A stretch of DNA of 64,000 nucleotides from assembly GCA_913043235.1 (NCBI GenBank), contig CAJWLO010000002.1:11055-75054 (forward strand), read 5' to 3'. Below the pieces are notes generated by a model, which saw nothing but the letters and a program-made list of their open reading frames with translations, had not been told where the DNA came from and did not search any database. The position numbers and the translations under genes were made by a program. Shown one piece after another: positions 4,947-27,158 of the stretch. How positions within the stretch are numbered: position 1 is the first letter of the stretch; the number at the start of each line of letters is the position of its first letter. Origin of the DNA: an uncultured Fidelibacterota bacterium (lineage in GTDB: Bacteria; Fidelibacterota; Marinisomatia; Marinisomatales; UBA1611).

Positions 4947-5604
4947 ATGAATCTACTCAAATATATTTCCCAAATATCATTTTATGTTCTATCAACAGTA
5001 TTATTGAAAACACATCATTTAAAATAAATTACTTACCATTGAGTATTGATAGTGTGCTGATGGTGCCACTTTATATATATTGATATTAAATCCGGATGCA
5101 GCTAATAAGTTTGTAACAGAAGCTCAAGAAGTGAGCTTGACCTTTGGGTTTGGGCATATTCCAGATATTGATAATATTAATGGGAGTGAGTATGATCTCC
5201 GAATATCGCAAGATATTACAATTGTTACAGAAAGTAAGGGTAGTTTTTCAGGTATACCTGATGGGTGGGGGTACGTACCTGGGATCACATTGGTAATACA
5301 TTATACAACTATGGGAAATAATACGGATTTTGGAATTCCAAAGGATTTATCATTGTATCCAGTGTATCCCAATCCCTTCCATCCTACAACTGTTATAAGG
5401 TATGATATCCCAAAAAATAGTGATGTAAGTTTTTCGGGATATGATTTGCGAGGCAGGTTGGTAAAAAGGTTAATGAGCAAAAGGTCTAATCTTGGAAGGT
5501 ACCATTACAGATGTGTACCAGATATGGTTACTTCTGGTGTATATATACTAAGGATGAAAACTAAAGAAAAAGTATTCAATCAGAAGGTCACTTACATTAA
5601 ATGA
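4947..5604 (+). pseudogene. Probably degraded gene for a secreted protein with a T9SS/FlgD-type C-terminal sorting domain
   Basis: RBS plus ATG 4947 gives a signal-like peptide that stops at 5025-5027. A different frame (5080-5604) encodes 'YPNPFHPTTVIRYDIP...SGVYILRM...QKVTYIK'. Confidence 0.5.
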
Positions 5605-5893
5605 TCAACTTAGTTAGAATATATTTGGGTGTAGAGTAAATATATATTTTCATTGTAGCTATATTGTGATTGAGTGGTATTGAAGTAGTTTATTTTCTAC
5701 TGGTCATCGATGTCCTTCTTTATTTTAGTTTAACAGAAAATAGGATAAGTGAATTTATAAATTAAAGTAATACTTTAAGTGATGAAAGTATATTAAAAAA
5801 TATTCAAAATTAACATTAAAATAACTTAATATATTAATACTATAAATTCTAATATTAGCAGATTTAGGGTCTTTCTTTAAATAAAAAAAAGTT

Positions 5894-5922
5894 TTGACTC
5901 CATTGTAATAGAATTGTATTTT
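5894..5922 (+). promoter_or_regulatory. Sigma-70-type promoter, possibly producing a leaderless mRNA
   Basis: TTGACT-17 nt-TATTTT; ATG lies 8 nt downstream; no Shine-Dalgarno. Confidence 0.45.
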
Positions 5923-5930
5923 TACTTACT

Positions 5931-12376: not shown

Positions 12377-12379
12377 TTT

Positions 12380-13321: not shown

Positions 13322-13349
13322 TGCATTTATTTTCCATTAGGCGTCTTGC

Positions 13350-14573
13350 ATGCTTACGGTAGAAAAAGCCAGGAATATTATAACTGAAAACGTGAAGCTT
13401 CTGGATATCCAGCAGGTAAAACTACAGGAAACATCCGGACGGGTTCTAGCTGAAGATATCACTGCGTTGTTTCCCATGCCTCGCTTCGATAATTCAGCTA
13501 TGGATGGATTTGCGGTTAAAGCAGCCGACATCGCTGGTGCGGGAAAGGATAATGCAGTATCACTGAAAATGATCGGCGGTGTCTCAGCGGGTGATCCAGG
13601 TGATCTTGTGCTAAAACCAGGAGAGTGTGCACAGTGTATGACTGGTGCACCTATCCCCGAGGGTGCGGACGCTGTAGTCATGGTAGAAGATACCAGCGGT
13701 TATGATAGCAGTGGAACAGTGAAAATTTACCTTGAAGCATATCCTGGAAAACATATCCGCAGAAAGGGTGAAGAAATTTCTGAGGGTGATGTGCTTATTC
13801 AGAAAAAAACTAAAATTACACCAGCGGAAATGGGTACTCTAGCTACTTTTGGTTACAAACATGTTCAGGTCTATCGTAGCCCAAGAGTAGCCTTGATTGG
13901 AACTGGCGATGAATTGGTAAAACCAGGTCGTCCTCTTAAACCTGGGCAAATATATAATTCCAATTTATTTGTATTTTCCGATCTGGCTAACAGGTTGGGA
14001 GCAAAGGTTATCATAGATGATATCGTTGCAGATGATCCAAAGGCACTCCATACATGCCTATCCCAGGCATTGATGGAATGTGATGTTGTTATTTCATCAG
14101 GAGGTGTTTCTATGGGCCGTCACGACTATGTACGGAAAATATTTATGGAATTGGGAGTGAGTGAACATTTCTGGCGAGTGGCACAAAAACCAGGTAAACC
14201 ATTATTCTTTGGGACCACTGCCGATACGTTAATTTTTGGTCTGCCTGGTAACCCGGTATCCAGTTTCATTGGTTTTATGGAATGGGTATGGCCGGCCATA
14301 GAAAAAATGATGGGCATAACCGCGAGCAGAACTATACCCGCTATATTGGCAGATCAATTTCCTCGAGAGCGAGTTAAAACCCGTTTTCTTTTTGGCCGGG
14401 CTTGGTGGGATGAAGGCCATCTGGTCTGTGCATCTTCTTTAAAGGTTGGTTCTCATATGCTTTCGTCTTCGCTGGATGCCAATTGTATCATTAGCAGCGA
14501 GCCTGGCGATAAACCCCTCCAACCAGGGGAAATGGTGCAGATACGAATTTTGCCATGGAAATCGATCCCATGA
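13350..14573 (+). CDS. moeA: Molybdopterin molybdotransferase
   Basis: 'FDNSAMDGFA', 'MTGAPIPEGADAVVMVE', 'SGGVSMG', 'GLPGNP'. Confidence 0.96.
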   Translation: MLTVEKARNIITENVKLLDIQQVKLQETSGRVLAEDITALFPMPRFDNSAMDGFAVKAADIAGAGKDNAVSLKMIGGVSAGDPGDLVLKPGECAQCMTGAPIPEGADAVVMVEDTSGYDSSGTVKIYLEAYPGKHIRRKGEEISEGDVLIQKKTKITPAEMGTLATFGYKHVQVYRSPRVALIGTGDELVKPGRPLKPGQIYNSNLFVFSDLANRLGAKVIIDDIVADDPKALHTCLSQALMECDVVISSGGVSMGRHDYVRKIFMELGVSEHFWRVAQKPGKPLFFGTTADTLIFGLPGNPVSSFIGFMEWVWPAIEKMMGITASRTIPAILADQFPRERVKTRFLFGRAWWDEGHLVCASSLKVGSHMLSSSLDANCIISSEPGDKPLQPGEMVQIRILPWKSIP

Positions 14574-15559
14574 TTATTACACCTCATGAACTACAGCAGT
14601 GGATGGATGAAAAGCGAATATTTCAATCCATTGATTTACGTTCATCAAATCAGCGACGGGAATTCCCTTTGACTGCGATAAAACCGCTAATCGCAGATAC
14701 TGAATCATTACCGGTACCCAATGGAGAGCCAATGGTTCTTATTTGCCAGTTTGGTATTATTACAGAAGGGATAATTATTGAAAAGGAATTGGAAAAGGCT
14801 TATAGTCTTCTGGGTGGTGCCCTGGCTTGGGAAGCATTGCAATCTGATAAACAGGATCTTAGTCGTTGGTCACGGCAGACTGTATTGCCTGAAATTGGGA
14901 CAATTGGGCAAGGAAAATTAAATAGGGCTTCCATCGCTATCGTGGGTGTTGGTGGCTTGGGTTGCCCGGCTGCGACTATGCTTGCTGCAGCTGGTATAGG
15001 TACCTTAATACTCATTGATGGTGATAGAGTTGAACTTTCCAATATTCACCGCCAGCCTCTTTATGGTATTGGCGATGTTGGCAAAATGAAAGTGACTGCA
15101 GCAACAGCCATCTTAAACAATCATTATGATCAGGTTAGCGTGGTACCAGTAGTTAAAACTCTTAATGAAGGCAATGCCTTGGATTATTTACAAGGGGTGG
15201 ATGTAATTATCGATGCAACCGATAATATTGAGGCAAGGCAGGTCATCGACCGTGCTTCTAGAGAGTTAACGATTCCCATGGTATATGGTGGCCTCTATCG
15301 ATTCGAGGGGCAAGTTGCGATTTTGAACCATGATGGCAGTCCTGGTTTCAATGAATTATTTCCTCAACCTTCCTCCGTTGGAGATACTTGTACGGATGCG
15401 GGTGTATTAGGAATGTTGCCGGGGATTATTGGTAACATGCAGGCTCTGGAAGCAGTCAAACTGATTGTGGATCTGAATTCAACCCTATCCGGGAAACTGC
15501 TTATTTACGATGGTCTTACCCATGAAACAACCATAATAAAATTGTGCGAGAATAAATGA
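14570..15559 (+). CDS. moeB: Molybdopterin-synthase adenylyltransferase (ThiF/MoeB) with N-terminal rhodanese-like domain
   Basis: ATGA overlap with moeA; 'RWSRQ', 'GVGGLG', 'DGDRVELSNIHRQ', 'TCTDAGVLG'; N-terminal 'IDLR...LICQFG...SLLGG'. Confidence 0.9.
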   Translation: MIITPHELQQWMDEKRIFQSIDLRSSNQRREFPLTAIKPLIADTESLPVPNGEPMVLICQFGIITEGIIIEKELEKAYSLLGGALAWEALQSDKQDLSRWSRQTVLPEIGTIGQGKLNRASIAIVGVGGLGCPAATMLAAAGIGTLILIDGDRVELSNIHRQPLYGIGDVGKMKVTAATAILNNHYDQVSVVPVVKTLNEGNALDYLQGVDVIIDATDNIEARQVIDRASRELTIPMVYGGLYRFEGQVAILNHDGSPGFNELFPQPSSVGDTCTDAGVLGMLPGIIGNMQALEAVKLIVDLNSTLSGKLLIYDGLTHETTIIKLCENK

Positions 15560-15798
15560 AAGTTACAGTTAAATGTTTTTCTCAGGTAAAATATGCCCTG
15601 AAGGTTAATCAAATATTCTTGGATCTGGAACCAGGGCAAACGACGGCAGATGTGGAAGAAGCAGTCCGCAAACATGCCACGGGAAAGTTGGATGGTATTA
15701 GTCTGCGTATCGCAGTTAACCGCGTTTATGTACAGGAACCAGTGGTTGTAGAGGATGGCGACGAAGTTGCTCTAATTCCTCCGGTACAGGGTGGATAG
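15556..15798 (+). CDS. moaD: Molybdopterin synthase sulfur carrier
   Basis: Ubiquitin-like; ends 'DEVALIPPVQGG'. Confidence 0.93.
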   Translation: MKVTVKCFSQVKYALKVNQIFLDLEPGQTTADVEEAVRKHATGKLDGISLRIAVNRVYVQEPVVVEDGDEVALIPPVQGG

Positions 15799-16212
15799 AT
15801 GATTATTACTGAAATCGTGCATGGTCGGATTATACATTTTCCTACAGATGAAACACGCCGGGACGAAGGAGCCGAGTTAGTCTTTAATGGTCGGGTACGC
15901 AGTACAGAAAATGGGGAACTAATCCTTGCTTTGGAATATGAACATTATAGTGGTATGGCCGAAAAAGAACTAAATGGTTTAGCACAGGAGACAGTAGAAA
16001 AATTTCCACTGAGGGATTTATTTTGCCGACACCGTATTGGCCGGATCAATATTGGTGAAACCAGTCTACATGTTGCAATTTGGTCCAAGCATCGCAAAGA
16101 AGGTCTGGAAGCAATGACCTATTTCATTACTGAACTCAAGAAGCGGGTGCCCATTTGGAAATGGGCCATTTTACGCGATGGAGAGAAGGTCCCCAGCGAA
16201 TGTATACATTAA
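15799..16212 (+). CDS. moaE: Molybdopterin synthase catalytic subunit
   Basis: 'FNGRVR', 'LEYEHY', 'HRIG', 'HRKEG', 'KKRVPIWK'. Confidence 0.93.
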   Translation: MIITEIVHGRIIHFPTDETRRDEGAELVFNGRVRSTENGELILALEYEHYSGMAEKELNGLAQETVEKFPLRDLFCRHRIGRINIGETSLHVAIWSKHRKEGLEAMTYFITELKKRVPIWKWAILRDGEKVPSECIH

Positions 16213-16272
16213 ATAACTGATATGTAATTATATACAATATCCTTTGCTAAGTAGCAAGAATTCAACTTTGTC

Positions 16273-16301
16273 TTGATAATCATAAACGACTGTTATATTT
16301 T
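16273..16301 (+). promoter_or_regulatory. Sigma-70-type promoter for the coxGSLM-like operon
   Basis: TTGATA-17 nt-TATTTT, overlapping a TGn-TATATT extended -10. Confidence 0.45.
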
Positions 16302-16375
16302 AATCTACCTTATTCCTTGGACTAACGTAGGGTTCCACATACCAGGTTTTAACAAATGAAGAAATTGGAGTTCAT

Positions 16376-16831
16376 TTGGCAATACGCCTGGAAAAAGAAT
16401 ATCATATAGACCTTCCTCGCGAAGATGTCTGGTATGCGATCCAGAACCCAGATATCCTAGCACAGATTCTCCCTAACTGCCAGTCTCTTGAACCAAAGGG
16501 GAATAATCAATTCACAGCCCACATTGATATTAAGGTGGGACCCGTTCGTAGCAAATTCGAGTCTAGCTTTGAAATGTTTGATATACATGAACCAGAAGGA
16601 TACAAATTTCTTGTTCGTGGTAACGGCAAGAATGGATCCATGAATGGCCAGGGAGAGATAAAACTTCACTCCAATAAAGATGGTACTAATTTCACGTTTA
16701 TTGCTGAAGGAAATGTCGCTGGGATTCTTGCCCGTGTTGGTCAGCGTTTGATTGAGGCAACTGGGAAAAAATTAATGGACCAGGGGTTTGAAAATTTTAA
16801 GAATAAAGTAATTGAAAGCAATATGGCATAG
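16376..16831 (+). CDS. coxG: CoxG/SRPBCC-family protein
   Basis: TTG start with GGAG RBS; 'VW..IQNPDIL..ILPNC', 'KVGPV', 'LARVGQRLI'. Confidence 0.85.
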
Positions 16832-16857
16832 TGATACCTAAAATAAAGGAGCAAATT

Positions 16858-17334
16858 ATGAGTCATAAAATATCGATGACAGTAAATGGTAATTCATGTA
16901 CTGGTGATGTAGAAGCAAGGACCTTATTGGTAGATTTTCTTCGCGACCATTTAGATTTAACAGGTACGAATATTGGTTGTGATACCAGCCAATGCGGTGC
17001 TTGCACCATTATTATGGATGGTTGTGTTATAAAATCTTGCACAGCACTGGCTGTCCAGGCTGATGGCAGTGAGATTACCACCATTGAAGGACTTGCAAAC
17101 AGTGGCGAATTGCATCCCCTCCAGCAGGCATTTTGGGATGAGCATGGTTTGCAGTGTGGCTATTGTACGCCAGGTATGATTATGGCTGGTGTTGGTTTAC
17201 TGGGTGACAATCCGAAACCATCTGAGTTTGAGATACGACATTCCCTTGAAGGCAATATATGCCGTTGTACCGGGTACCAGAATATTGTAAAAGCTATCCA
17301 AACCACATCACAGACGATGGAAGGAGGCGCATAA
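16858..17334 (+). CDS. coxS: Molybdenum hydroxylase 2Fe-2S subunit (CoxS-like)
   Basis: RBS aaggag plus ATG 16858; '[10 protein letters not shown]...C' and 'QCGYC...CRC'. Confidence 0.92.
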
Positions 17335-19691
17335 TGGGTAAACATATAGGCAAAAGTGTAAAAAGAGTAGAAGACCCGAGGTTTATTCAGGGAAAGGGTA
17401 ATTATGTAGCGAACATTAAACTCCCAGAAATGGCTCATGTAGCAGTTCTGAGGAGCCCCCATGCCCATGCTAAGATCAACAGTATAAATATAGACGCCGC
17501 TAAAGCTTTGGATGGTGTAATTGATATATTTGTTGGAAAGGATCTCATTGATGATGGTGTCGGTAAAATGCCTGTTATCTGGCAGGTGCCAGATAACAAA
17601 ATTCCAGACCGCTGGCCTTTGGTACCAGACAAAGTACGTCATGTTGGAGATAGTGTCGCAGCTGTCGTAGCGGAAAATCAATATATAGCACGCGACGCCC
17701 TAGATTTAATTCAAGTTGATTATGAAGTGCTTGACGCTACAATAGGTGCTAAGGCTACCACGGAAGATGGAAAACCTCTCGTTCATGATGAAATTGAAAA
17801 TAATATTAGTTTCAAATGGGGTTTAGGAGATAGGGAAGCATGTGATAAAGCCTTTGAAGAAGCGGATCATGTGGTAAAATTGGATTTGATCAACCAGCGT
17901 CTGATTGCTAATGCCATGGAACCAAGAGCTTGTGCTGCCCAATGGGTCACTGCGACAGAGAATATGACAGTGTGGACGACTAGTCAGAATCCGCACATTA
18001 TCCGTTTTGGGCTAAGTGCTGTTACTCTGCCAATGCTTGATGAGCATAAACTGAGGGTCATTTCTCCGGATGTAGGTGGTGGGTTTGGGAGCAAAATATT
18101 CCATTACCCGGAAGAGGTGATTGTGCCTTGGATAGCAAAAAAGATTAACAGGCCCTGCAAATGGGTTGCCACAAGAAGTGAATCTTTTATGACCGACTCT
18201 CAAGGACGTGATCATGTCCAAAACTGCAAGTTAGCATTAAAAAGTGACGGTACTATTACTGGACTATACGTGGAACTTCATGCTGACATGGGTGCATACT
18301 TATCAAGTATTGCACCATTGATTCCAACTGTCATTTGCATTACTCTTTTTTCCGGATTATATAAAAATCCAGGGATATGGGGTGAAACCACGGGAACACT
18401 AACTAATACTGTTCCTGTAGATGCCTACCGCGGTGCAGGAAGGCCAGAAGCATCTTACTTACTGGAACGAATCATAGATGTGGCTGCCAAGGAACTAGAT
18501 ATGGATCCTATTGAAATACGAAGAAAGAATTTTATTGGAAAAGATGAATTTCCTTATCAGACACCGGTGGCATTTTTATACGACAGTGGTGATTACCATG
18601 CCATGTTCGATAAACTGGAAGAAATTGCAGATTACAAAGGTATGCGAGCTGCCCAGGCTAGTGCAAAAGATGAAGGACGGCTTGTGGGAATTGGTGTAAG
18701 TGGTAGCGTAGAAGCAAGTGGATATGGTCCAGCGGCTACCGTAGGAGCACTGGGATTTTATGGTGGTATGTGGGAGCACGGAGGTATTCGAGTTCACCCG
18801 ACAGGTAAAGTTACAGCTTTTACGGGTTCTCATTCACATGGACAGGGTCATGAGACCACTATGGCTCAAATTGTAGCTGATAAATTGGGTATTGAAGTTG
18901 CCGATGTTGATGTAGTACATGGTGACACTGATCTTGTAACCCAAGGTATGGGTACCTACGGAAGCCGCAGTGCAGCGGTTGGTGGTGAAGCACTGTCAAA
19001 TGCTGCAAAGACGATACGTAATAAGCTAGTAACACTCGCTGCCCATCTCATGGAAGTGTCTGAAGATGATTTGGCATACGACGATGAAAATGGCACTGTT
19101 CATGTAAAAGGTGTTCCGGAAAAATCGAAGGCATTTGGAGAACTCGCATTTGCTGCCTACAGCGGCCATAGCCTACCGGAAGGAATGGATCCTGGTTTGG
19201 AAACCGCAGCCTATTATAATCCTGGAAATTTTACATTCCCGTCCTCTGCTCACCTGGTGCAAGTGGAAGTAGATAAAGATACTGGTGAAATTGAGGTTCA
19301 GAAATATGTTGCAGTTGAGGATTGTGGAAATGTAATTAATCCCATGGTGGTTGAAGGCCAGATTTTGGGCGGAATAGCACAGGGTGTGGGACAGGCTCTT
19401 TATGAGCATGGTGTCTATGATGATGATGGCCAATTGGTCACTGGGTCTATGCTGGATTATACCATGCCTAGAGCTGACAATTTTCCTATGATTGAATCTG
19501 ACCGTATAGAAACTCCATCCCCCAGTAATACTCTGGGAGTCAAGGGTGTAGGTGAAATGGGAAGTATCACATCACCACCAGCAGTGGTAAATGCTGTTGT
19601 TGATGCCTTATCCGGTTATGGTGTAAAGGATATTGAGATGCCACTTACATCAGAAAAAATCTGGAACCTAATACAAACAAACGGAGGTTAG
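17334..19691 (+). CDS. Xanthine-oxidase-family molybdopterin-binding large subunit, 'form II CoxL'/aldehyde-oxidoreductase type
   Basis: TAATG overlap; 'GGGFGSK'; active-site loop AYRGAGR at 18423-18443 (no Cu-binding Cys); 'HGQGHET', 'KGVGE'. Confidence 0.92.
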   Translation: MGKHIGKSVKRVEDPRFIQGKGNYVANIKLPEMAHVAVLRSPHAHAKINSINIDAAKALDGVIDIFVGKDLIDDGVGKMPVIWQVPDNKIPDRWPLVPDKVRHVGDSVAAVVAENQYIARDALDLIQVDYEVLDATIGAKATTEDGKPLVHDEIENNISFKWGLGDREACDKAFEEADHVVKLDLINQRLIANAMEPRACAAQWVTATENMTVWTTSQNPHIIRFGLSAVTLPMLDEHKLRVISPDVGGGFGSKIFHYPEEVIVPWIAKKINRPCKWVATRSESFMTDSQGRDHVQNCKLALKSDGTITGLYVELHADMGAYLSSIAPLIPTVICITLFSGLYKNPGIWGETTGTLTNTVPVDAYRGAGRPEASYLLERIIDVAAKELDMDPIEIRRKNFIGKDEFPYQTPVAFLYDSGDYHAMFDKLEEIADYKGMRAAQASAKDEGRLVGIGVSGSVEASGYGPAATVGALGFYGGMWEHGGIRVHPTGKVTAFTGSHSHGQGHETTMAQIVADKLGIEVADVDVVHGDTDLVTQGMGTYGSRSAAVGGEALSNAAKTIRNKLVTLAAHLMEVSEDDLAYDDENGTVHVKGVPEKSKAFGELAFAAYSGHSLPEGMDPGLETAAYYNPGNFTFPSSAHLVQVEVDKDTGEIEVQKYVAVEDCGNVINPMVVEGQILGGIAQGVGQALYEHGVYDDDGQLVTGSMLDYTMPRADNFPMIESDRIETPSPSNTLGVKGVGEMGSITSPPAVVNAVVDALSGYGVKDIEMPLTSEKIWNLIQTNGG

Positions 19692-19694
19692 ACC

Positions 19695-20540
19695 ATGCAA
19701 CCAGCAAATTTTGATTACTATCGAGCCAGTTCAATTGATGAAGCCGAATCATTATTTAAAGCTAATGCTGATGCTAGTTTTCTGGCGGGAGGGCACAGCA
19801 TTATTCCAGCAATGAAACTTCGCCTATCCGAACCAGGTTCCCTTGTTGATATTGCAGGGATAAATGATCTGAAGGGTATTAGCAAGGATGATGATACGAT
19901 CCATATTGGTGCTTTGACCACCCATGCTGAGGTGGAAAATTCAGGTGTAGTGAAGGATGGTTGCGAGGCATTGGCAGAAGCAGCCGGTATGATTGGAGAT
20001 CCACAGGTTCGTAATCGTGGTACAATTGGTGGCAATGTTGCACATGCTGATCCCGCTTCAGATTATCCAGGAATTTTAATGGCACTAGGAGCAAAAATAA
20101 TAACGAGTGGCAGAACAATCTCTGTAGAAGACTTTTTTACCGGTTTATTTGAAACGGCATTAAATGATGGGGAAGTTATTACAGAAATACAGGTTCCAGT
20201 ATTAAGCAATGGTAGTGGTGCCGCCTATGCCAAATTTTTTAATCCAGCATCCCGCTATGCTGTGGTTGGAGTTGGAGCTGTTGTTACTTTAGATAACGGA
20301 TCCTGTACCTCCTGCAGGATTGGTGTTACAGGTGCTAGTGATCATGCATTTCGTGCTTCAGCAGCAGAAGATGCTCTAACCGGTTCTGATCTTGGCGATG
20401 ATGCCATAGTTGCTGCGGCAGCAAAAGCAGCTGATGGTCAGGATATGCTCAGTGACCTTGTCGCTTCCGCTGATTATCGTACCCATCTTTGTGGTGTTAT
20501 ACTAAAAAGAGCGGTTTCTAACGCAGCCGAACGAGTTTAA
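19695..20540 (+). CDS. coxM: Molybdenum hydroxylase FAD subunit (CoxM-like)
   Basis: 'AGGHSI', 'DPQVRNRGTIGGNVAHADP'. Confidence 0.92.
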   Translation: MQPANFDYYRASSIDEAESLFKANADASFLAGGHSIIPAMKLRLSEPGSLVDIAGINDLKGISKDDDTIHIGALTTHAEVENSGVVKDGCEALAEAAGMIGDPQVRNRGTIGGNVAHADPASDYPGILMALGAKIITSGRTISVEDFFTGLFETALNDGEVITEIQVPVLSNGSGAAYAKFFNPASRYAVVGVGAVVTLDNGSCTSCRIGVTGASDHAFRASAAEDALTGSDLGDDAIVAAAAKAADGQDMLSDLVASADYRTHLCGVILKRAVSNAAERV

Positions 20541-20577
20541 TGCCTATAGGCCCTGGTAGCCCACCTTTTTTCCGAAT

Positions 20578-21345
20578 ATGCCCGTTGGCAGTACTCAACT
20601 GCCAACGGGCACTTCACAAGGTCCTCTATCCGGTACTCCATTTGAACAGGAACCTGATCAGTCTTATTATGAGACGCCAGATCAGTTTATAAAAATCCCA
20701 ACCGGTATCGCTTTGATCGGTGAAGGAGATGACAGCCATTCTATTTCAATAAATTCTTTTGAGATTAGTAAGTTCCCGGTAACAAACCTCGCCTATCAGC
20801 GATTTATAGAACAGACTAATCACACTCTTCCTTCTCATTGGCATAGGGGATTTCCTGAAATCCTATGTGATCATCCTGTTGTGGAAGTGAACTGGTATGA
20901 TGCTATAGCCTATTGTAAATGGTTAAGCGATGCTACAGGAGTTAAACATAGAATTCCCACAGAAATTGAATGGGAACGAGCTGCTCGCGGTGTGGAAAAT
21001 AATGTATACCCTTGGGGAAATTCTTTCAATTTCAAAAATTGCAATTGTTGGGAATTAGGCGTTGGGTGGACCACACCAGTGAACTGTTTTTTAAGTAGTG
21101 CAAGTTCATTTGGTGTCCTTGATATGGTTGGGAATGTCTGGGAATGGTGCAGTACCCTATTTATTGATTACCCCTATAAGGTTCATGATGGAAGAGAAGA
21201 TTTTGAAGTAGATGGTTGGCGGGTTCTCCGTGGCGGTTCTTGGATGGATCATGAATGGGGAGTTCGTGCTGCACGACGCTTAAGTGGGAATCCAATTGCT
21301 TTTAGCCATAATACAGGATTTCGTGTTATCCGAGAAATATCTTGA
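20578..21345 (+). CDS. FGE-sulfatase (SUMF1/EgtB/NirV)-fold protein without the FGE catalytic cysteines
   Basis: 'PVTN..Y..F', 'HPVVEVNWYDAIAYC', 'RIPTEIEWERAARG', 'DMVGNVWEW', 'RGGSW', 'GFR'. Confidence 0.88.
   Translation: MPVGSTQLPTGTSQGPLSGTPFEQEPDQSYYETPDQFIKIPTGIALIGEGDDSHSISINSFEISKFPVTNLAYQRFIEQTNHTLPSHWHRGFPEILCDHPVVEVNWYDAIAYCKWLSDATGVKHRIPTEIEWERAARGVENNVYPWGNSFNFKNCNCWELGVGWTTPVNCFLSSASSFGVLDMVGNVWEWCSTLFIDYPYKVHDGREDFEVDGWRVLRGGSWMDHEWGVRAARRLSGNPIAFSHNTGFRVIREIS
20579..20611. repeat. Perfect 14-bp inverted repeat
   Basis: tgcccgttggcagt-actca-actgccaacgggca; overlaps ATG 20578; no U-tract follows. Confidence 0.85.
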
Positions 21346-21385
21346 TGAAAAATCAAATTAATTAATATAAATAAATAGAAAAAAA

Positions 21386-21799
21386 ATGAAGAAAACAACA
21401 AATAAACTTAATAGTAATGGAAAAGATCTTACTATAACAAAAGATTCAGTAATTGAAGCACTCAGAGATTGCTATGACCCTTGCTGTGAAGATCGGGGAA
21501 TTAGTGTAGTTGATATGGGGTTAATTGAAGATATTAAAGTGAATAATAGAAAGGTTGATATTGAAATATTATTAACTACAGGATGGTGTCCATCAGTATC
21601 TATTCTATTTAAGATGATGAAGGAGAGGATTGAAGAATTTGAAGAAGTTGATAATGTTGATGTTAAGGTTGTCTGGGATCCAGTGTGGACAATGGAAAGG
21701 CTTTCAGAATCAGCGAGAAAAAAACTTACAATTCCATTGAAAGAATTGATTCCATTAAAGAAAAAACAATTATTAGAACAACAACAAGGAGGAAAATAA
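21386..21799 (+). CDS. DUF59/SufT-like metal-sulfur cluster assembly factor
   Basis: 'ALRDCYDPCC..GISVVDMGLI', 'LTTGWCP', 'VWDPVWTMERLS'. Confidence 0.88.
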   Translation: MKKTTNKLNSNGKDLTITKDSVIEALRDCYDPCCEDRGISVVDMGLIEDIKVNNRKVDIEILLTTGWCPSVSILFKMMKERIEEFEEVDNVDVKVVWDPVWTMERLSESARKKLTIPLKELIPLKKKQLLEQQQGGK

Positions 21800-21800
21800 A

Positions 21801-22808
21801 ATGGCAATACCAAAAGATGTATTCGTATTCGACTGTGTTTGTCACATTTTCAATTTTGACAAGTCAAACGCATTTGACTCAGCTGGTGATCTTTTTGATG
21901 AACACCTTTATGCGTTTCACGCTTTTTTAACTAAAGAAGGTGAAAAAGTTATTGACCGTGATGACTTTTTTCGCGAATGGAGCGTGGATGAAATCTATGA
22001 TATGGTTATTGAAGAATCCGATACAGATATGATTGTCTCACAACCCCTCCCGCTCACTGATCTTTTCAAGGATGGTTTGTCCCCATGGGAGAAATGTGCA
22101 GAAATGGCGCAAAAGCATCCAGACCGTGCTGTATTTTGGGGATCAATTAATCCTCTTGAAGGGAAAAAAGCATTGGATTTAATGGAAGTACAAGTTAAGG
22201 AATATGGAGCAAAAGGATTCAAACTTTACAATGTACGATATGACTATGGACAGCCGTTTCCATGGAGGATGGATGATCCGCGTGTTGCTTATCCTGTATT
22301 TGAAAAAGCACAGGAACTTGGCATCAATCTTATTGGAGTACATAAAGGTGTGCCTCTTGGTCCACAACCAGTAGAGCATACCCGGACTTTTGATATGGAT
22401 GGAGCAGCTTCAAACTTCCCAGATATTAATTTCGTGATCTTTCATATTGGTTTGCCCTGGCTTGATGAAGTTCTCTGGCAGACAATACGCTATCCGAATT
22501 TATATGCATCCATTGCTGCCACATTGAATTTCATTGGTCGTCATCCAAGGGTATTTGCGGAAATAATGGCCAAACTGATGTGGTGGTGTGGTGAAGATAA
22601 GGTGATTTATGGAGGTGAAGCACCTATATGGCATCCACAATGGGCATTGGAAGAATTCTGGAACTTTGAGCTCCCCGAAGATCTGACAACAGAATATGGA
22701 TATCCACCACTGACAGAACAAGCCAAAAGGAAGATATTAGGAGAAAATCTAGCCCGGCTCCATGGTATGGACTTAGATGCAAAGAAAAAGGAATTGGGTT
22801 TAGCCTAA
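21801..22808 (+). CDS. Amidohydrolase-superfamily (Amidohydro_2) metalloprotein
   Basis: RBS aggagg; 'FDCVCH', 'GFKLY', 'HKG', 'FPDINFVIFHIGLP', 'KILGENLARLHG'. Confidence 0.88.
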   Translation: MAIPKDVFVFDCVCHIFNFDKSNAFDSAGDLFDEHLYAFHAFLTKEGEKVIDRDDFFREWSVDEIYDMVIEESDTDMIVSQPLPLTDLFKDGLSPWEKCAEMAQKHPDRAVFWGSINPLEGKKALDLMEVQVKEYGAKGFKLYNVRYDYGQPFPWRMDDPRVAYPVFEKAQELGINLIGVHKGVPLGPQPVEHTRTFDMDGAASNFPDINFVIFHIGLPWLDEVLWQTIRYPNLYASIAATLNFIGRHPRVFAEIMAKLMWWCGEDKVIYGGEAPIWHPQWALEEFWNFELPEDLTTEYGYPPLTEQAKRKILGENLARLHGMDLDAKKKELGLA

Positions 22809-22821
22809 TTTATTATCGTGA

Positions 22822-22872
22822 AAGGAACTGAAGGGTTTAATTATCTTATCTTTATCTTCCCTTCAGTTCCTT
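22822..22872. terminator. 14-bp stem-loop closing the amidohydrolase unit
   Basis: aaggaactgaaggg-(23-nt loop)-cccttcagttcctt. Confidence 0.6.
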
Positions 22873-23075
22873 ATCGTATTTGTAAAACGATTAATATATT
22901 ATTGATAGAACTTTTTTTAAGAATCAATTATAAAAAAATACTAGTGTAGATGTCATGTTTACAATTTTTCAAACTAAAATTAAATAAATCATCTAATATT
23001 ATTTGGGAAGAATGGATATTATAAATTATCGAAAGATACAATCAGCATTGGTAAATAAGAATAAAGGCATTTAAA

Positions 23076-23663
23076 ATGGATCATATTTACAATATAGCCA
23101 AGTTTTTACATGTTATTGGTTTTGCATTTATGTCCATCCCATTATTCAATTTGATTATTGTTAATGAAAGAGCGCTTATGGGGCCATCGCTTAATTATGC
23201 CACAGACCGTTATTTTGAAAATATCATTAAACGAGGAGCCATCCGTTGTTATGTATTTCAATGTACAGTGTTCCTATCAGGGATAGTAATTTTATTTCTC
23301 GGCTCAGGCTTAAATGCTATTTGGTCCAACTGGGTATTAACTGCCAAAACACTCATTTTGCTTTTGCTAATAAGTTTACTTTCCTATGTTCATTTTTCAA
23401 TCCAGCCGAAAATTGAGAGCCTGCTGGAGTCTTTAACACCTACTGAATTGACCTCTGAAGATTTGCCAGAAAAACTTGCCCCATTTCGAATTCTACGTAA
23501 AAAATTGGCTACAGTATGTCTATTCTTAGTAATTACGGCCATTATACTTGGCGTTCAGACAAACTATCGTTTCCATCCATTTGTTTCATTGTTTTTGCTT
23601 CTTCTTGCAGCTGGTTTTTCATTACGTGCAAACAAATCCTTGATTCGTTTTGGCTGGTTTTAA
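23076..23663 (+). CDS. Integral membrane protein (about 5 TM), DUF2269/CopD-like topology
   Basis: Hydrophobic helices with His in 'FLHVIG' and 'YVHF'. Confidence 0.7.
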   Translation: MDHIYNIAKFLHVIGFAFMSIPLFNLIIVNERALMGPSLNYATDRYFENIIKRGAIRCYVFQCTVFLSGIVILFLGSGLNAIWSNWVLTAKTLILLLLISLLSYVHFSIQPKIESLLESLTPTELTSEDLPEKLAPFRILRKKLATVCLFLVITAIILGVQTNYRFHPFVSLFLLLLAAGFSLRANKSLIRFGWF

Positions 23664-23777
23664 AATCTTGATTAAACGATTGATAAAGGACAGTATCAAA
23701 GCTGAATTAGAAACCTATCCTTAAAAACTGGTATAATATTTTTTTAAATAATTAAATAAAATTATAGAAATTATTTG

Positions 23778-25679
23778 ATGTCTTATTTAAGTGAATACCA
23801 AGATTCAATTAATAATCCAGATAAGTATTGGCAAAATCATGCCGAAAAAATCCATTGGTTTAAATTTCCAGAATCCATTCTTTCAAAAAGTAAGCAAGGT
23901 CATTATCGTTGGTTTGAAGGAGGTGAGCTAAACACTTGCTATTTGGCCTTGGATCAGCATGTGCTGAGAGGTCGTGGTGACCAACTCGCTCTTATTTATG
24001 ATTCACCTGTTACAAATAGTAAAAGGTCTTTTACTTATAATGAATTGTTAGAGCAAGTATCCCATTTTGCTGGTGTATTGGCTAATCTTGGAATTGAAAA
24101 AGGGGATCGTGTTGTTATCTATATGCCCATGGTGCCGGAGGCTGTAATTGCAATGTTGGCCAGTGCTAGATTGGGAGCCATCCATTCGGTTGTTTTTGGT
24201 GGATTTGCTTCAAATGAATTAGCGATAAGAATAGATGATGCAAAACCAAAAATAATTATATCATCCACATGCGGTATTGAATTCAAAAATATAATACCAT
24301 ATAAACCGTTGTTGGATGCTGCCATAGAATCAGCTCTTCATAAACCGGATCACACTATAATCCTAAAACGTCCTCAAGAAAATTGCGAACTTATTGATGG
24401 AAGGGATCATGATTGGGAAGATTGCATGAGCCAAGCAAGTCGGCACAATATTGTTCCTGTAAAAAGTACTGATCCGCTATATATATTGTATACTTCTGGA
24501 ACAACTGGGAAACCGAAAGGGATTGTCCGTGACAATGGAGGTCATGCTGTCTCTCTGAATTACAGTATGGATGCCATTTACGATATTTCTCCCGGAGATG
24601 TATATTGGGCCGCTTCTGATGTAGGTTGGGTTGTGGGGCATTCATACATCGTATATGCTCCTCTGATTCGTGGTTGTACCACAATCCTTTTTGAGGGTAA
24701 GCCAGTTAGAACACCCGATCCCGGTTCATTCTGGCGTGTCATAGAAGAATATAATGTTAAAACATTTTTTACAGCTCCTACTGCATTTCGGGCAATAAAA
24801 AAAGAAGACGCTGACGGAAAATTTATAGAAAAATATAATTTATCAACATTAGAATCCGTTTTTCTAGCTGGTGAGAGACTTGATCCTCCAACCTATAAAT
24901 GGCTGTCTGATCTTTTGGATTGTCCTGTGATTGATCATTGGTGGCAGACTGAAACAGGCTGGCCGATTTGTTCAAATATGTTGGGTACTGAATTGAAAAA
25001 AATCAAGATGGGATCTGCCACCGTACCCGTTCCTGGGTTTGATGTTCAGATTCTTAATAAGCATGGTCGCCGCGTGAAATCTTCAGAGACCGGGAGCATT
25101 GTTATAAAACTTCCGTTACCTCCTGGATGCTTGCCTACTTTATGGAATGATAATGAACGCTATGAAAGTTCCTATTTATCTTCATTCCCTGGGTATTACC
25201 TAACTGGAGATGGGGGTTATATAGATAATGATGGGTATGTATTTGTAATGGGTAGGACTGACGATGTAATTAATGTTGCTGGGCACCGTTTATCCACTGG
25301 TGAAATGGAAGAATTAATAGGAAGTCATAGAGCAGTAGCAGAATGCGCTGTTGTTGGTGTTGCTGATCAGCTCAAAGGTCAAGTTCCTGCGGGTTTTGTA
25401 GTACTCAAGGATGGGTTTAGTTTGCAAAATGAAGACTTGGTAACTGATTTGATTATGATTATTCGCAACAATATTGGAGCAGTTGCTAATTTTAAACAGA
25501 TAGCTATTCTGAAAAGATTACCTAAAACAAGGTCAGGAAAGATATTGAGAAAATCCATAAGAGCCTTGGCAGATCAAGGTCAAACGGAAATCCCATCTAC
25601 AATTGATGATCCCACTGTTATAGAAGAAATAAAACTTGTTTTAAAAAAGCTACAAATTGGAATGGCCTTTCATAATTGA
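23778..25679 (+). CDS. prpE: Propionyl-CoA/short-chain acyl-CoA synthetase
   Basis: 'YILYTSGTTGKPKGIVRDNGGH', 'AASDVGWVVGHSY', 'DHWWQTETG', 'LPKTRSGKILR'. Confidence 0.88.
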   Translation: MSYLSEYQDSINNPDKYWQNHAEKIHWFKFPESILSKSKQGHYRWFEGGELNTCYLALDQHVLRGRGDQLALIYDSPVTNSKRSFTYNELLEQVSHFAGVLANLGIEKGDRVVIYMPMVPEAVIAMLASARLGAIHSVVFGGFASNELAIRIDDAKPKIIISSTCGIEFKNIIPYKPLLDAAIESALHKPDHTIILKRPQENCELIDGRDHDWEDCMSQASRHNIVPVKSTDPLYILYTSGTTGKPKGIVRDNGGHAVSLNYSMDAIYDISPGDVYWAASDVGWVVGHSYIVYAPLIRGCTTILFEGKPVRTPDPGSFWRVIEEYNVKTFFTAPTAFRAIKKEDADGKFIEKYNLSTLESVFLAGERLDPPTYKWLSDLLDCPVIDHWWQTETGWPICSNMLGTELKKIKMGSATVPVPGFDVQILNKHGRRVKSSETGSIVIKLPLPPGCLPTLWNDNERYESSYLSSFPGYYLTGDGGYIDNDGYVFVMGRTDDVINVAGHRLSTGEMEELIGSHRAVAECAVVGVADQLKGQVPAGFVVLKDGFSLQNEDLVTDLIMIIRNNIGAVANFKQIAILKRLPKTRSGKILRKSIRALADQGQTEIPSTIDDPTVIEEIKLVLKKLQIGMAFHN

Positions 25680-25777
25680 AAGATAATAGCCTTATAATAT
25701 AAAAAATTGGTAAATTGAAGTATCAAGAAGCGTCACCTTGATTATGCACATGAGTTTTTTATTAAGGGGAGGATGCT

Positions 25778-26665
25778 ATGATACCAGGTTCTTTTAATTA
25801 CCACTCGCCGTCATCTTTGGATGAGGCCATAAAGCTGTTGGAAGATCTTGGTGATGACGCCAAAATCCTAGCCGGCGGACACAGTTTAATACCCATGATG
25901 AAACTTCGATTGGCTGAACCGGATCATTTGGTGGATATTAATGGTCTATCGGATCTTGATTATATCAGAGAAGAAGTGGGTGTGCTTTGTATTGGGGCAA
26001 TGGCGAGAGAATCTGCTCTAGAAAATTCTGAACTAATCGCAGAAAAATACCCTATTCTGAAGGATACTTCTGAAGTAATTGCAGATCCACTAGTACGAAA
26101 TTTGGCTACTGTGGGTGGAAATATCGCACATGGTGATCCAGCAAATGATCATCCTGCCACGATGGTAGCGCTGGATGCTGAAGTTGTGGCATCGGGTCCC
26201 TCAGGATTATTGGGAAGTGGTAGAAGAACTATTGCCATTGATGATTTTTTTCAGGGTCCTCTAATGACGGCACTTACAGATAATGAAATTTTGACTGAGA
26301 TTCGGATTCCAAGTCCAAATGGTAAATTCGGCGCTGCATATAAAAAAATGGAGCGCAAAGTGGGTGACTATGCCATCGCAGGTTCTGCCGCCGCATTAAA
26401 TTTTGATGGGGATACTTGTAGTAAGGCAGGAATTGCTTTAACTAATGTAGGGCCAACACCGGTCCGTTGTTCTGATGCGCAGGATGTGTTGGTAGGTACT
26501 AGCGTATCGCAGGAAGATGCAGATGAGGCAGGTAAACTTGCAGCAGCAGCATCCCAGCCAGTGGGTGACCATCGTGGCTCAGAAGAGTATAAGCGAGCAG
26601 TAGTAAAAGTGCTGACATCACGGGCTATTATGAAAGCTAAAGAAAGAGCAGAAGGAGGGAGTTAA
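25778..26665 (+). CDS. coxM: Aerobic CO dehydrogenase medium (FAD) subunit
   Basis: '[13 protein letters not shown]', '[19 protein letters not shown]', 'RKVGDYA'. Confidence 0.95.
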
Positions 26666-26666
26666 T

Positions 26667-27158
26667 ATGGCCACACAATCAATTACAGTGACAATTAATG
26701 GAGAACCCAGAACTGCTGAAGTGGAAGATAGATTGCTTTTGGTTCACTTGATCCGTGATAATTGTGCATTAACTGGAACTCATATAGGATGCGATACCAC
26801 CCATTGTGGTGCATGTACAGTTCTTTTGGATGGAACAGCAGTTAAATCTTGTACAGTTTTTGCTGTTCAAGCTAATGGAAGAGAAGTAACTACCATTGAA
26901 GGGATGGAAGGAGAAACACTTCACCCATTACAAGAAGGCTTTATGGAAGAACATGGTTTGCAGTGCGGTTTTTGTACACCAGGGATGATTATGTCATCAA
27001 AACACTTACTAGATAATAATCCAACCCCAACTGAAGATGAAATTCGTTGGGGAATTTCTGGAAATCTATGCCGTTGTACTGGTTACCAAAACATTGTAAA
27101 AGCGGTGCAATATGCATCAAACACACTTCAAGAAAAAGCTACAGAAGGAGGCGAATAA
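26667..27158 (+). CDS. coxS: Aerobic CO dehydrogenase small (2Fe-2S) subunit
   Basis: '[10 protein letters not shown]', 'QCGFCTPG', '[15 protein letters not shown]'. Confidence 0.95.

Follow-up and report, generated by a model that had tools for sequence, protein, structure and literature searches.

What brings together, on one strand of a marine bacterium's genome, a CoxL-type molybdenum enzyme, a protein of the FGE-sulfatase fold, a DUF59 protein, an atypical amidohydrolase (hereafter AH) and a short-chain acyl-CoA ligase? These genes occupy 9.3 kb of the window, that is, the whole stretch of 64,000 nucleotides that was analysed. A previous sequence-only reading had proposed that they form a single catabolic pathway. 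Here we describe the proteins, their homologues and their neighbourhoods, and we refer to the FGE-fold, DUF59 and AH genes together as the trio.

Organization of the locus

Searches of the open reading frames with Pfam and NCBIfam placed all the named genes, in the same orientation, between a molybdenum cofactor (Moco) operon and a form I Mo-Cu carbon monoxide dehydrogenase (CODH), as had been described:

11330-16212, + strand: upstream Moco genes MoaA, MoaC-MogA, MoeA, MoeB, MoaD and MoaE
16376-16831, + strand: CoxG-like SRPBCC protein (PF06240, E 5.6e-26), opening the form II block
16831-17334, + strand: CoxS-like [2Fe-2S] small subunit, form II (Fer2_2, E 1.6e-34)
17334-19691, + strand: form II CoxL-type molybdopterin large subunit (AYRGAGR, without the Cu-binding Cys)
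19695-20540, + strand: CoxM-like FAD medium subunit, form II (FAD_binding_5, CO_deh_flav_C)
20578-21345, + strand: FGE-sulfatase fold protein, first gene of the trio (PF03781, E 7.7e-49)
21386-21799, + strand: DUF59 protein (PF01883), three invariant Cys (DPCC, TTGWCP)
21801-22808, + strand: AH, an ACMSD-type Amidohydro_2 TIM-barrel (PF04909, E 1.5e-35)
22822-22871, + strand: 14-bp perfect hairpin, directly 3' of the AH stop codon
23076-23663, + strand: 195-aa hydrophobic membrane protein, no Pfam or NCBIfam match
23775-25679, + strand: PrpE/Acs-like short-chain acyl-CoA ligase (NCBIfam models NF007815, NF001208)
25778-29524, + strand: form I Mo-Cu CODH coxM-S-L (AYRCSFR; TIGR02416 1254 bits)

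Downstream of the form I coxM-S-L genes, Pfam identified CoxG, XdhC-YHS, CoxD, CoxE, a MobA-like protein and XdhC. From coxG through AH, the genes form a single tight block with intergenic gaps of at most 40 nt: coxG and coxS overlap by 1 nt, and 37 nt separate coxM(II) from the FGE-fold gene. This last junction is bridged by contigs from two marine RNA libraries, evidence that consists of contigs only, falls short of demonstrating one transcript and may include DNA carry-over. The block is followed by a 267-nt AT-rich gap starting with the 14-bp perfect hairpin (-24.9 kcal/mol, z -5.38), which was equalled by none of 200 shuffles and is likely an operon end or an RNA-stabilising element. The strong hairpin and the gap lie between AH and the ligase and speak against the proposed coupling of the two. 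The tight coxG-AH block, the hairpin-opened gap and the 195-aa membrane protein were absent from the sequence-only reading. This last protein had no BLASTP match in the best 80 AH loci and was not seen in related loci.

The form II molybdoenzyme

The translation of the large subunit reads VDAYRGAGRPEA, which bears out the earlier call of a Cys-less AYRGAGR enzyme. Since AYRGAGR stands in place of AYXCSFR, this form II CoxL lacks a Cu-ligating Cys. With the form I large subunit of the window it shares 42% identity, and its TIGR02416 score of 678 bits falls short of the cut-off of 991, as compared with 1254 bits for the form I protein. Hence, in its motif, its coxS-L-M gene order, the lack of the Cu-ligating Cys and its score under the form I cut-off, it resembles other form II ("putative") CoxL proteins. 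The two motifs are set apart in the available part of PMC13203968, and the role of form II CoxL is described as unclear in the available parts of PMC13203968 and PMC8941161. Unlike the usual form II CoxL, the copy in the window has coxG ahead and the trio behind in the same tight block.

On the other hand, neither a curated cut-off nor a near solved member places the enzyme among the molybdenum aldehyde oxidoreductases (PaoABC, Desulfovibrio MOP and archaeal glyceraldehyde dehydrogenase). The large subunit reached 678 bits on NF041018 (glyceraldehyde dehydrogenase alpha; cut-off 790) and 208 bits on the PaoC model (cut-off 1180), and the CoxS-like subunit 244 bits on the glyceraldehyde dehydrogenase gamma model (cut-off 290). 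The closest solved relatives of the large subunit are a CODH large chain (8uem, 639 bits) and quinoline 2-oxidoreductase (1t3q, 518 bits), as against just 111-171 bits for solved aldehyde oxidoreductases.

The proteins of the trio

The FGE-fold protein scores 167 bits on PF03781 (cut-off 23.3), a fold common to FGE, ToxD, CalU17, the C-domain of EgtB, PvdO and PorK, and its closest solved chains are ToxD (7spq, E 2.3e-30) and CalU17 (E 5e-24). In FGE, two conserved Cys after RGGS bind Cu(I). In the window these positions are D224 and G228 (the region reads RGGSWMDHEWGVRAARR), which sets the protein apart from a formylglycine-generating enzyme proper; moreover, every NCBIfam equivalog score is far under its cut-off. 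D224 and G228, following RGGSW, and also C155 are invariant among 23 orthologues. No sulfatase gene adjoins the FGE-fold gene within the window, and the protein has a 16-residue insertion in common with the Anaerolineae copies.

The DUF59 protein (137 aa) scores 35.6 bits on PF01883 (cut-off 23.5). The DUF59/MIP18 family, including SufT and PaaD, is marked by a Cys within T-x-x-x-C-P, and the TTGWCP sequence, invariant in the orthologues, assigns the protein to this family. It stayed below the cut-offs for SufT or PaaD proper, with 76 against 143 for SUF_assoc, 71 against 180 for haloarchaeal PaaD and 65 against 203 for SufT. Three Cys, C33 and C34 of DPCC and C68 of TTGWCP, are invariant in 25 orthologues; DPCC is missing from the DUF59 partner of the T. 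roseum paralogue. In addition, four natural DUF59-AH fusions (P0039, P0051, P0052 and P0066) point to a partner or subunit of AH instead of the maturation factor suggested before.

AH is encoded by a single gene in the genome and scores 123.8 bits on PF04909. Its AlphaFold model (pLDDT 95.6) retrieved with Foldseek, at E 4.5e-12 to 1e-9 and 12-19% identity, 3irs, gamma-resorcylate decarboxylase, LigJ, LigY and LigW, the top matches belonging throughout to the ACMSD superfamily. AH thus shares its TIM-barrel with the ACMSD-type enzymes 2dvt, the hydratase LigJ, the C-C hydrolase LigY, the decarboxylase LigW and the uncharacterised BB4693 (3irs). Strand 1 of Amidohydro_2/ACMSD proteins carries H-x-H (or E-x-H) metal ligands. 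In AH this strand reads FVFDCVCH, and D11-x3-H15 replaces H-x-H; across 56 family members, H15 never varies and D11 hardly does. The strand 5 and strand 6 histidines of ACMSD-type enzymes have aligned counterparts in His181 and His215, and their acidic residue at strand 8 is also matched, apparently by Glu273 and not by Asp. Among AH orthologues, C99 and C263 are fully conserved and K141 and K182 almost so. To our knowledge, none of gamma-resorcylate decarboxylase, LigJ, LigY, LigW and BB4693 needs a DUF59 partner.

AH is 72-85% identical across phyla, and in loci that also encode form I CoxL it is the better conserved of the two proteins (79-85% identity, against 61-74% for CoxL). Its GC3 is host-like (0.33, versus 0.97 in locus L005). 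With 85% of the amino acids identical, only 26% of the codons at conserved residues are, and synonymous sites are saturated although the protein is 80-85% identical across phyla. The host-like GC3 and the low codon identity argue for long residence and strong purifying selection on AH.

The trio is an autonomous, imported operon

Relatives of AH are encoded in 470 of the 583 candidate stretches from species-representative genomes, and neighbourhoods were taken from the best 80 of them. In these 80 loci, DUF59 lies directly upstream of AH in all cases, joined there by FGE in 77; tblastn gave an FGE match in 79, with query coverage above 60% in 74. All other neighbour clusters occur in at most 11 of the best 80, save an antisense-ORF artefact at 15, and the neighbours in 15 diverse AH loci are mainly housekeeping or unrelated genes. 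FGE-DUF59-AH is a very conserved, autonomous three-gene set, and the inheritance of the stretch is mosaic. An IclR regulator adjoins the trio in five loci and also adjoins paralogous AH-DUF59 pairs.

Among the same best 80 loci, form II coxL was found beside the AH orthologue in three (L001, L003 and L004, all keeping the coxM(II)-FGE adjacency) and the ligase orthologue also in three (L001-L003). These four loci all belong to Marinimicrobia. The other 76 have neither form II cox nor the ligase orthologue within 10 kb; hence any hand-over to these enzymes is local to the lineage at best. The sequence-only reading had named the lack of conserved linkage to such enzymes as an outcome that would speak against it, and this is what we found at the level of AH orthologues. 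Moreover, a sample of 201 genomes from the window's phylum yielded AH only once, in the window's own genome (G000). Its AH clusters in the tree with Anaerolineae and Actinomycetota sequences, and the insertion that the FGE-fold protein has in common with Anaerolineae copies likewise points to import. The trio has been imported horizontally into the window's lineage as a self-contained operon.

The ligase and the cox island in relatives

The ligase falls short of the PrpE model NF007815 (770 bits, cut-off 955), of a further PrpE equivalog (731, cut-off 827) and of the Acs equivalog (675, cut-off 725), and exceeds the cut-off of the Acs subfamily model NF001208 (676 against 657). A second Acs-like gene, on contig C133, is 37% identical to it. 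Orthologues of the ligase (74-76% identity) adjoin form I cox in two genomes without the trio, G059 and G146. Within the window's phylum, the linkage of the ligase is with the form I cox cluster, not with the trio. Form II cox likewise normally adjoins the form I CODH cluster in this phylum, and form II cox, ligase and form I cox are present together in relatives that lack the trio. Thus, G146 (97% complete) has a CoxL2 orthologue at 84% and no AH. In G059, form II CoxL heads a one-strand operon of coxG-S-L-M(II), E1alpha, E1beta, E2, an NAD-kinase-like gene and the PrpE-like ligase orthologue, so that the slot of the trio in the window is taken in this relative by a carbonyl-cleaving E1/E2 cassette. 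The form I cox genes converge on the ligase in L002, L003, G059 and G146 and are co-oriented with it in the window.

Altogether, every component of the five-part pathway is present and co-oriented, but the components do not make up a conserved unit. As the stretch is pieced together from three separately inherited blocks, support for the single-pathway proposal is only partial.

Related amidohydrolase-DUF59 pairs and a working model

Amidohydrolase-DUF59 pairs beside propane-type di-iron monooxygenases, which the sequence-only reading had mentioned, do exist and are homologous to the AH of the window. The plasmids pAMI4 of Paracoccus aminophilus and pCB82_1 of Bradyrhizobium sp. CB82 encode hydroxylase alpha, reductase, hydroxylase beta, MmoB, amidohydrolase, DUF59, GroEL and alcohol dehydrogenase (ADH). 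Their amidohydrolases are 36.5% and 39.2% identical to AH, respectively, over 97-98% of its length. The amidohydrolases linked to monooxygenase and ADH form the sister clade of AH (joint clade support 100/98). In Gordonia and Mycobacterium, the pair downstream of the propane/phenol-type soluble di-iron monooxygenase genes is described, in the available part of PMC6849523, as a predicted amidohydrolase together with a protein whose function is unknown; the DUF59 member of such pairs carries the annotation "iron-sulfur cluster assembly protein". The monooxygenase-linked pairs share with the window an obligate DUF59 neighbour beside a homologous barrel. They differ in gene order (AH-DUF59, as against DUF59-AH in the window), in a longer DUF59 protein (about 270 aa versus 137 aa with DPCC) and in having no FGE-fold gene. 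Branches are also longer in these pairs (0.3-0.9) than in the slowly evolving orthologue clade (0.02-0.2). No di-iron monooxygenase, GroEL-like chaperonin or alcohol dehydrogenase was found within the window.

Elsewhere, paralogous pairs are found with IclR and ADH, with SDR and epoxide hydrolase, or with an E1/E2 cassette and AMP-binding ligases. These contexts of the wider family (Zn-ADH, SDR, epoxide hydrolase, E1/E2 and AMP-binding ligases) fit small-oxygenate catabolism, in line with the small-substrate route proposed before, which nevertheless leaves the link to form I CODH unexplained. Judging by homology and gene context, the high conservation of AH, the DUF59-AH fusions, the IclR regulator and the paralogues in catabolic clusters point to the trio being an enzyme rather than a helper.

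The best explanation that we can offer, and one that we hold tentatively, combines the mosaic with small-oxygenate catabolism. The stretch is a lineage-specific mosaic of three modules, namely form II coxG-S-L-M, the imported trio and a cox-island ligase. The trio would have been inserted right behind coxM(II), where joint transcription with the form II block is probable. AH and DUF59 may constitute one cytoplasmic two-protein metalloenzyme built on a metal-dependent ACMSD-type barrel, to which DUF59 possibly supplies a Cys-ligated metal or Fe-S site, and the FGE-fold protein could serve as a non-catalytic binding subunit. As the trio fills the slot of the carbonyl-cleaving cassette of a relative, its substrate might be a small C2-C4 oxygenate of ketone, hydroxyketone or aldehyde level; an aldehyde product would then be oxidised by the form II enzyme, and the ligase would activate the resulting acid. 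What the data show directly is the gene content, the mosaic inheritance of the stretch, the independence and exceptional conservation of the trio, its relationship to the monooxygenase/ADH-linked pairs and its joint occurrence with form I CODH. The complex and its metal site, the class of substrate and any passing on of products to the form II enzyme or the ligase are our inferences.

Association with form I CODH and alternative explanations

Form I CoxL, called by a TIGR02416 score above the cut-off, is present in 27 of the 29 trio-type genomes examined (the exceptions being G419 and G260), a count that rests on a split into trio-type and pair-type genomes made after seeing the data and on related genomes that are not independent. 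In one family sample, it was found in 8/8 AH-positive and 29/93 AH-negative genomes. The background is low (30/201 in the class sample and 6/201 in the window's phylum), and in a control the NiFe hydrogenase large subunit occurred in just 7 of 15 trio genomes, with form I CoxL in all 15. The association runs one way: the trio is missing from 29 of the 37 form I genomes of the family sample and from 5 of the 6 found in the window's phylum. A Chloroflexota clade with DUF59-AH only breaks the rule, with form I CoxL in 2 of 18 AH-positive genomes and in 0 of 15 on re-check. Finally, cox clusters harbour or adjoin the trio in the window, L002, L003, L009, L061 (coxM-S-L, FmdA, FGE, DUF59, AH) and L069 (coxM-S-L, x, CMD, trio, x, XdhC-YHS), a placement shared by three or more phyla. 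The small-oxygenate model does not predict that the trio should be so nearly confined to genomes with form I CODH.

That the juxtaposition is meaningless appears rather doubtful. An unrelated enzyme would then have been transferred into a permissive, transfer-prone cox island, and common lineages and lifestyle would account for the co-occurrence with CODH. In many loci the trio does sit among housekeeping genes (tRNA synthetases, recG, plsX, fpg and smc), the cox island is rearranged among relatives, and AH-positive genomes cluster by lineage. Against this reading stand the recurrent placement in cox clusters, an association that holds inside one family, and the 37-nt coxM(II)-FGE gap with its adjacency kept in three further Marinimicrobia loci.

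A role of the trio as a dispensable helper of CoxL-type molybdenum enzymes, chiefly form I Mo-Cu CODH, is unlikely. It might then deliver metal, sulfur or Fe-S clusters, repair the Cu-S-Mo site or remove an inhibitor, with the Cys of the DUF59 and FGE-fold proteins carrying metal or sulfur. The distribution of form I CoxL against its low backgrounds, the hydrogenase control and the placement in cox clusters would agree with such a role, as would the three invariant Cys of DUF59, a family annotated in Fe-S assembly. In contrast, most form I genomes manage without the trio, the Chloroflexota AH-positive genomes mostly lack form I CoxL, and paralogous pairs occur in cox-free contexts. AH is also more conserved than its supposed client, the IclR regulator suggests an inducible catabolic operon, and the distribution carries the post hoc split and non-independence noted above.

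Much less probable still is a catabolic trio that liberates CO, with a small hydroxy- or oxo-carbonyl compound as one conceivable source, and passes other products to the form II enzyme and the ligase. The trio would then be kept only where form I CODH burns the CO, which matches the one-way nesting, the flanking of the window's trio by an aldehyde-oxidase-like enzyme, an acyl-CoA ligase and a CO oxidase, and the C-C cleavage performed in the ACMSD superfamily (decarboxylases, LigY); against it stands the Chloroflexota DUF59-AH clade without form I CODH, and we know of no amidohydrolase-fold enzyme that releases CO.

Compared with the small-oxygenate mosaic that we favour, a functional coupling of the trio to aerobic CO oxidation, be it as a CO-releasing, C-C cleaving metalloenzyme or as an optional helper of the Mo-Cu active site, commands limited confidence. 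If true, it would explain why an operon scattered horizontally over at least three phyla is almost confined to genomes with form I CoxL and repeatedly found inside cox clusters. This near-confinement is the new observation.

Gene layout and RNA contigs

The sequence-only reading placed a form II molybdenum enzyme (the Cys-less AYRGAGR type), an FGE-fold protein, a DUF59 protein, an amidohydrolase and an acyl-CoA ligase between a Moco operon and a form I (Mo-Cu) CO dehydrogenase (CODH), and proposed that the five form one catabolic module. Open reading frames and domain models confirmed the presence and order of these genes. Hereafter, AH denotes the amidohydrolase, CoxL2 the form II large subunit of the window, and the trio the FGE-fold, DUF59 and AH genes.

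Features of the region (window positions, strand, description)
11330-16212, plus: Moco operon
starts 16376, plus: coxG of the form II block
starts 16831, plus: coxS (form II)
17334-19691, plus: form II large subunit (CoxL2), motif stretch VDAYRGAGRPEA
starts 19695, plus: coxM (form II)
starts 20578, plus: FGE-fold protein
starts 21386, plus: DUF59 protein
21801-22808, plus: AH, Amidohydro_2 barrel
22822-22871: hairpin directly after the AH stop codon, 14-bp perfect inverted repeat, 23-nt loop
starts 23076, plus: 195-aa membrane protein without family
23775-25679, plus: PrpE/Acs-like ligase
downstream, plus: form I coxM-S-L, AYRCSFR, TIGR02416 1254 bits
then in order, plus: coxG, XdhC-YHS, coxD, coxE, MobA-like gene, xdhC

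From the form II coxG to AH, every gap measures 40 nt or less. A 267-nt AT-rich gap lies 3' of AH, and the hairpin at its start (-24.9 kcal/mol, z -5.4) is probably the end of a transcript running from coxG(II) to AH. Scans of positions 15500-27000 yielded 34 sigma-70 promoter-like sites against 34.8 expected, in a phylum that may use other promoters, and 9 terminator-like sites where 9.1 were expected.

Contigs from four marine metatranscriptome libraries align to the stretch. Most of them do so at 90-95% identity and hence stem from relatives. One 386-nt contig piece matches AH with a single difference, and the junction between coxM(II) and the FGE-fold gene is spanned by two contigs, each from a different study. 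Contigs cannot demonstrate a single transcript or an expression level, and their depth cannot rank genes. None aligns to 22865-24828, an interval that includes the membrane protein and the greater part of the ligase, but this is uninformative on expression. In two studies, contigs join the 3' end of coxS(II) (17294) to that of coxS(I) (27139) with 35 other letters between. These most likely derive from relatives that match both paralogous places, and not from a deletion.

Directly 3' of the form I coxG, positions 30143-31102 encode an XdhC/CoxF-like chaperone that ends in a fused YHS domain, which is a putative copper-binding module. This fusion also adjoins form I cox in L009 and L069 (loci fetched from other genomes carry L numbers) and in other genomes of the phylum. 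Immediately 3' of the second xdhC lies a class V aminotransferase of the cysteine desulfurase type (34767-35957), for which a role in Mo-centre sulfuration would fit.

The trio as the conserved unit

AH is exceptionally conserved: across the best 120 of 1346 database matches, identity to it ranges from 72 to 99%, and the names attached to them are Acidimicrobiia, Anaerolineae, Ktedonobacteraceae, Chloroflexales and Bacillota. The 120 include four natural DUF59-AH fusions of 460-480 aa. In a library clustered at 50% identity, full-length matches drop from the orthologue group directly to 46% or less.

A scan of species-representative genomes returned 470 AH relatives, of which the best 80 loci were fetched and read; those closest to the window are named Candidatus Marinimicrobia, and the window itself derives from a Marinimicrobia-type bacterium. 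In these best 80 of 470, a DUF59 gene lies immediately upstream of AH in every case. The FGE-fold gene was found upstream in 77 by BLASTP on ORFs, and tblastn gave an FGE match in 79, with more than 60% query coverage in 74. A form II coxL adjoins AH only in L001, L003 and L004, and a ligase orthologue (74-75% identity) only in L001-L003, all of them Marinimicrobia; three further AMP-binding matches in these loci (23-32% identity) belong to unrelated ligases. One antisense-ORF artefact apart, every other neighbour family occurs in at most 11 of the 80 loci, and the neighbours of 15 diverse trio loci are mostly housekeeping or unrelated genes. What is conserved as a unit is the trio rather than the five-part module: the part of the proposal that linked the FGE-fold, DUF59 and AH genes held, whereas their linkage to form II cox and the ligase is confined to Marinimicrobia loci.

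Among cultured bacteria, Solirubrobacter soli DSM 22325 carries the trio and Nonomuraea gerenzanensis the DUF59-AH pair. Full-text literature searches found no description of the trio in the papers covered. Genes near the trio include CN_hydrolase (8 loci), FmdA_AmdA (5 plus L061) and an amide-type ABC transporter (up to 11/80). A nitrile, formamide or cyanide role was dropped, since such neighbours are too few and come mostly from one lineage.

Protein features

The predicted fold of AH is an ACMSD-type barrel (pLDDT 95.6). Among solved structures, the closest folds are those of BB4693, gamma-resorcylate decarboxylase, LigJ, LigY and LigW (12-19% identity), from which AH differs on strand 1 by D11-x3-H15 in place of H-x-H. 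Across 56 family members, H15, H215 and N233 are invariant and D11, K141, H181 and K182 nearly so; a profile alignment puts E273 at the strand 8 ligand position. Searching solved-structure sequences with AH profiles returned only 3irs and weak ACMSD-type matches, and the ESM Atlas only 'amidohydrolase' clusters. DUF59 orthologues share invariant DPCC and TTGWCP motifs.

ToxD and CalU17 are the closest matches of the FGE-fold protein, in which the FGE cysteine pair is absent and a single invariant cysteine, C155, is retained. A true FGE serving a sulfatase was rejected because this catalytic pair is missing; a sulfatase does lie upstream of the trio in 7/80 loci, all from related MAGs.

Paralogous AH-DUF59 pairs

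Paralogous AH-DUF59 pairs (33-39% identity) make up the sister clade of the AH orthologue group. The statement of the sequence-only reading that such pairs occur beside monooxygenase clusters was borne out on Paracoccus and Bradyrhizobium plasmids, where the pair stands behind di-iron monooxygenase genes with GroEL and an alcohol dehydrogenase (ADH). Elsewhere, paralogous pairs accompany IclR and ADH (Thermomicrobium roseum and G698, one of the sampled genomes, which carry G numbers), ADH and a cupin (L007), SDRs and an epoxide hydrolase (Rhodococcus), or an E1/E2 cassette, an SDR and AMP-binding ligases (Natrinema). Taken together, these contexts point to short-chain alcohol, ketone or aldehyde chemistry.

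A co-directional cluster on the minus strand of L105 (G698:C2, 8658-14228) comprises IclR, an AH paralogue, a long DUF59, a Zn-ADH, a short DUF59 and the AH orthologue, so that both kinds of pair stand side by side. L007 has a similar pairing plus an FGE-fold gene.

Origin of the trio in this lineage

Among 201 evenly sampled genomes of the phylum, only the window's own (G000) yielded AH; form I CoxL occurs in 6/201, and another four genomes or contigs have a form II-like CoxL. Three relatives allow the island to be reconstructed. In G137, a form I coxM lies directly 3' of form II coxG-S-L-M. G146 carries an 84% CoxL2 orthologue and a 74% ligase orthologue adjoining form I cox, and has no AH. 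In G059, form I coxM-S-L-G and XdhC-YHS are followed by a convergent ligase orthologue (76%). The strand of this ligase also carries form II coxG-S-L-M (AYRGAGR), E1alpha, E1beta, E2 and an NAD-kinase-fold gene, which together with the PrpE-like ligase make up one operon (L092, G059:C13, 6325-16941, minus strand); a form II CoxL thus lies within what looks like an acetoin or 2-oxoacid cleavage operon. By these contexts, the ancestral island consisted of form II cox, a variable cassette, the ligase and form I cox, and the trio is an insertion.

In the AH tree, the Marinimicrobia rows are nested among Anaerolineae and Actinomycetota rows. Moreover, a 16-residue insertion in the window's FGE-fold protein is common to the Anaerolineae copies. 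AH has a GC3 of 0.33 in the window versus 0.97 in L005, and at conserved residues only 26% of codons are identical, yet 85% of residues are. The low GC3 and few identical codons indicate that the transfer was not recent, and the excess of residue over codon identity points to purifying selection on AH.

Co-occurrence with form I CODH

We scored form I CoxL as present when its TIGR02416 score exceeded the cut-off. It was found in 5/5, 5/5, 5/5 and 4/5 of the trio genomes reached through loci. A class sample had it in 3/4 AH-positive genomes against a background of 30/201, and in a family sample of 101 genomes it was present in 8/8 AH-positive versus 29/93 AH-negative genomes (one-sided hypergeometric P ~2e-4, uncorrected; ~1.4e-3 after leaving out two genomes known beforehand). 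Counting each genome once and including G000, 27/29 trio-type genomes carry form I CoxL; the two others are G419 (1.2 Mb) and G260. Furthermore, L002, L003, L009, L061, L069 and the window have the trio next to or within a form I cluster. The NiFe hydrogenase large subunit served as a control: of 15 trio genomes, each with form I CoxL, 7 had it, and a general 'trace-gas scavenger' explanation was dropped on this count.

A Chloroflexota sample (301 genomes) speaks against the association: it contains 18 AH-positive and 38 form I-positive genomes, with both in only 2. Among 15 re-checked AH-positive Chloroflexota genomes, none had form I CoxL above the cut-off. Their 780-837-bit matches are form II, as judged by AYRGAGR and the S-L-M order, with coxG upstream in 2/5 loci read. 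The Chloroflexota AH copies are 72-76% identical to that of the window and form a DUF59-AH pair with no adjacent FGE in all 4 loci read; a search of G644, G566 and G708 gave no FGE orthologue with an E of 1e-20 or lower. As these pair genomes mostly lack form I, the form I rule holds for the trio type and not the pair type, a split that was made after seeing the data and among related, non-independent genomes.

CoxL2-like genes occur in 105/301 Chloroflexota genomes (a count that includes the unpublished G457 and G646) and in 17/18 AH-positive ones, most of one clade. A specific tie of AH to CoxL2 orthologues was dropped: 64-68% orthologues occur in 3/301 Chloroflexota, one of them AH-positive.

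Interpretation

The best-supported reading of the stretch is a mosaic. The trio, acquired horizontally and now located 3' of a form II molybdenum enzyme, would be a metalloenzyme of two or three proteins. The most likely local logic, which we put forward tentatively, would lead from a small carbonyl compound to an aldehyde, an acid and finally an acyl-CoA. We favour it because the E1/E2 carbonyl-cleaving cassette of G059 fills the slot of the trio, and because of the family contexts. In addition, a form II coxL heads that E1/E2 and ligase operon, which makes an aldehyde oxidase role plausible for the form II enzyme. Comparison with relatives thus provides concrete, testable ideas for both the slot and the oxidase. 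Form II CoxL and monooxygenase-linked amidohydrolase-DUF59 pairs, two long-standing annotations with no assigned function, are here joined in one operon.

Two bolder readings draw on the association of the trio with form I CODH. The trio might be an optional CODH helper, or it might be an enzyme that releases CO. That the trio is nearly confined to form I CODH genomes offers a new lead on the trace-gas metabolism of soil Actinomycetota, Chloroflexota and marine Marinimicrobia.

Other features of the window

An N6/N4 DNA methylase (42727-44088, minus strand) lies on the opposite strand to its neighbour at 44183-47545, a 1120-aa protein with no Pfam family; around 42727-47545 the AT skew is about -0.17, unlike the remainder of the window. 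The regions 796-10268 and 51093-55928 encode several very large proteins, secreted or located at the surface, that carry cadherin/Big_9, MORN/TonB_C and Por_Secre_tail domains, together with two proteins, of 589 and 269 aa, that have no family. Several proteins of the window carry a T9SS sorting domain.
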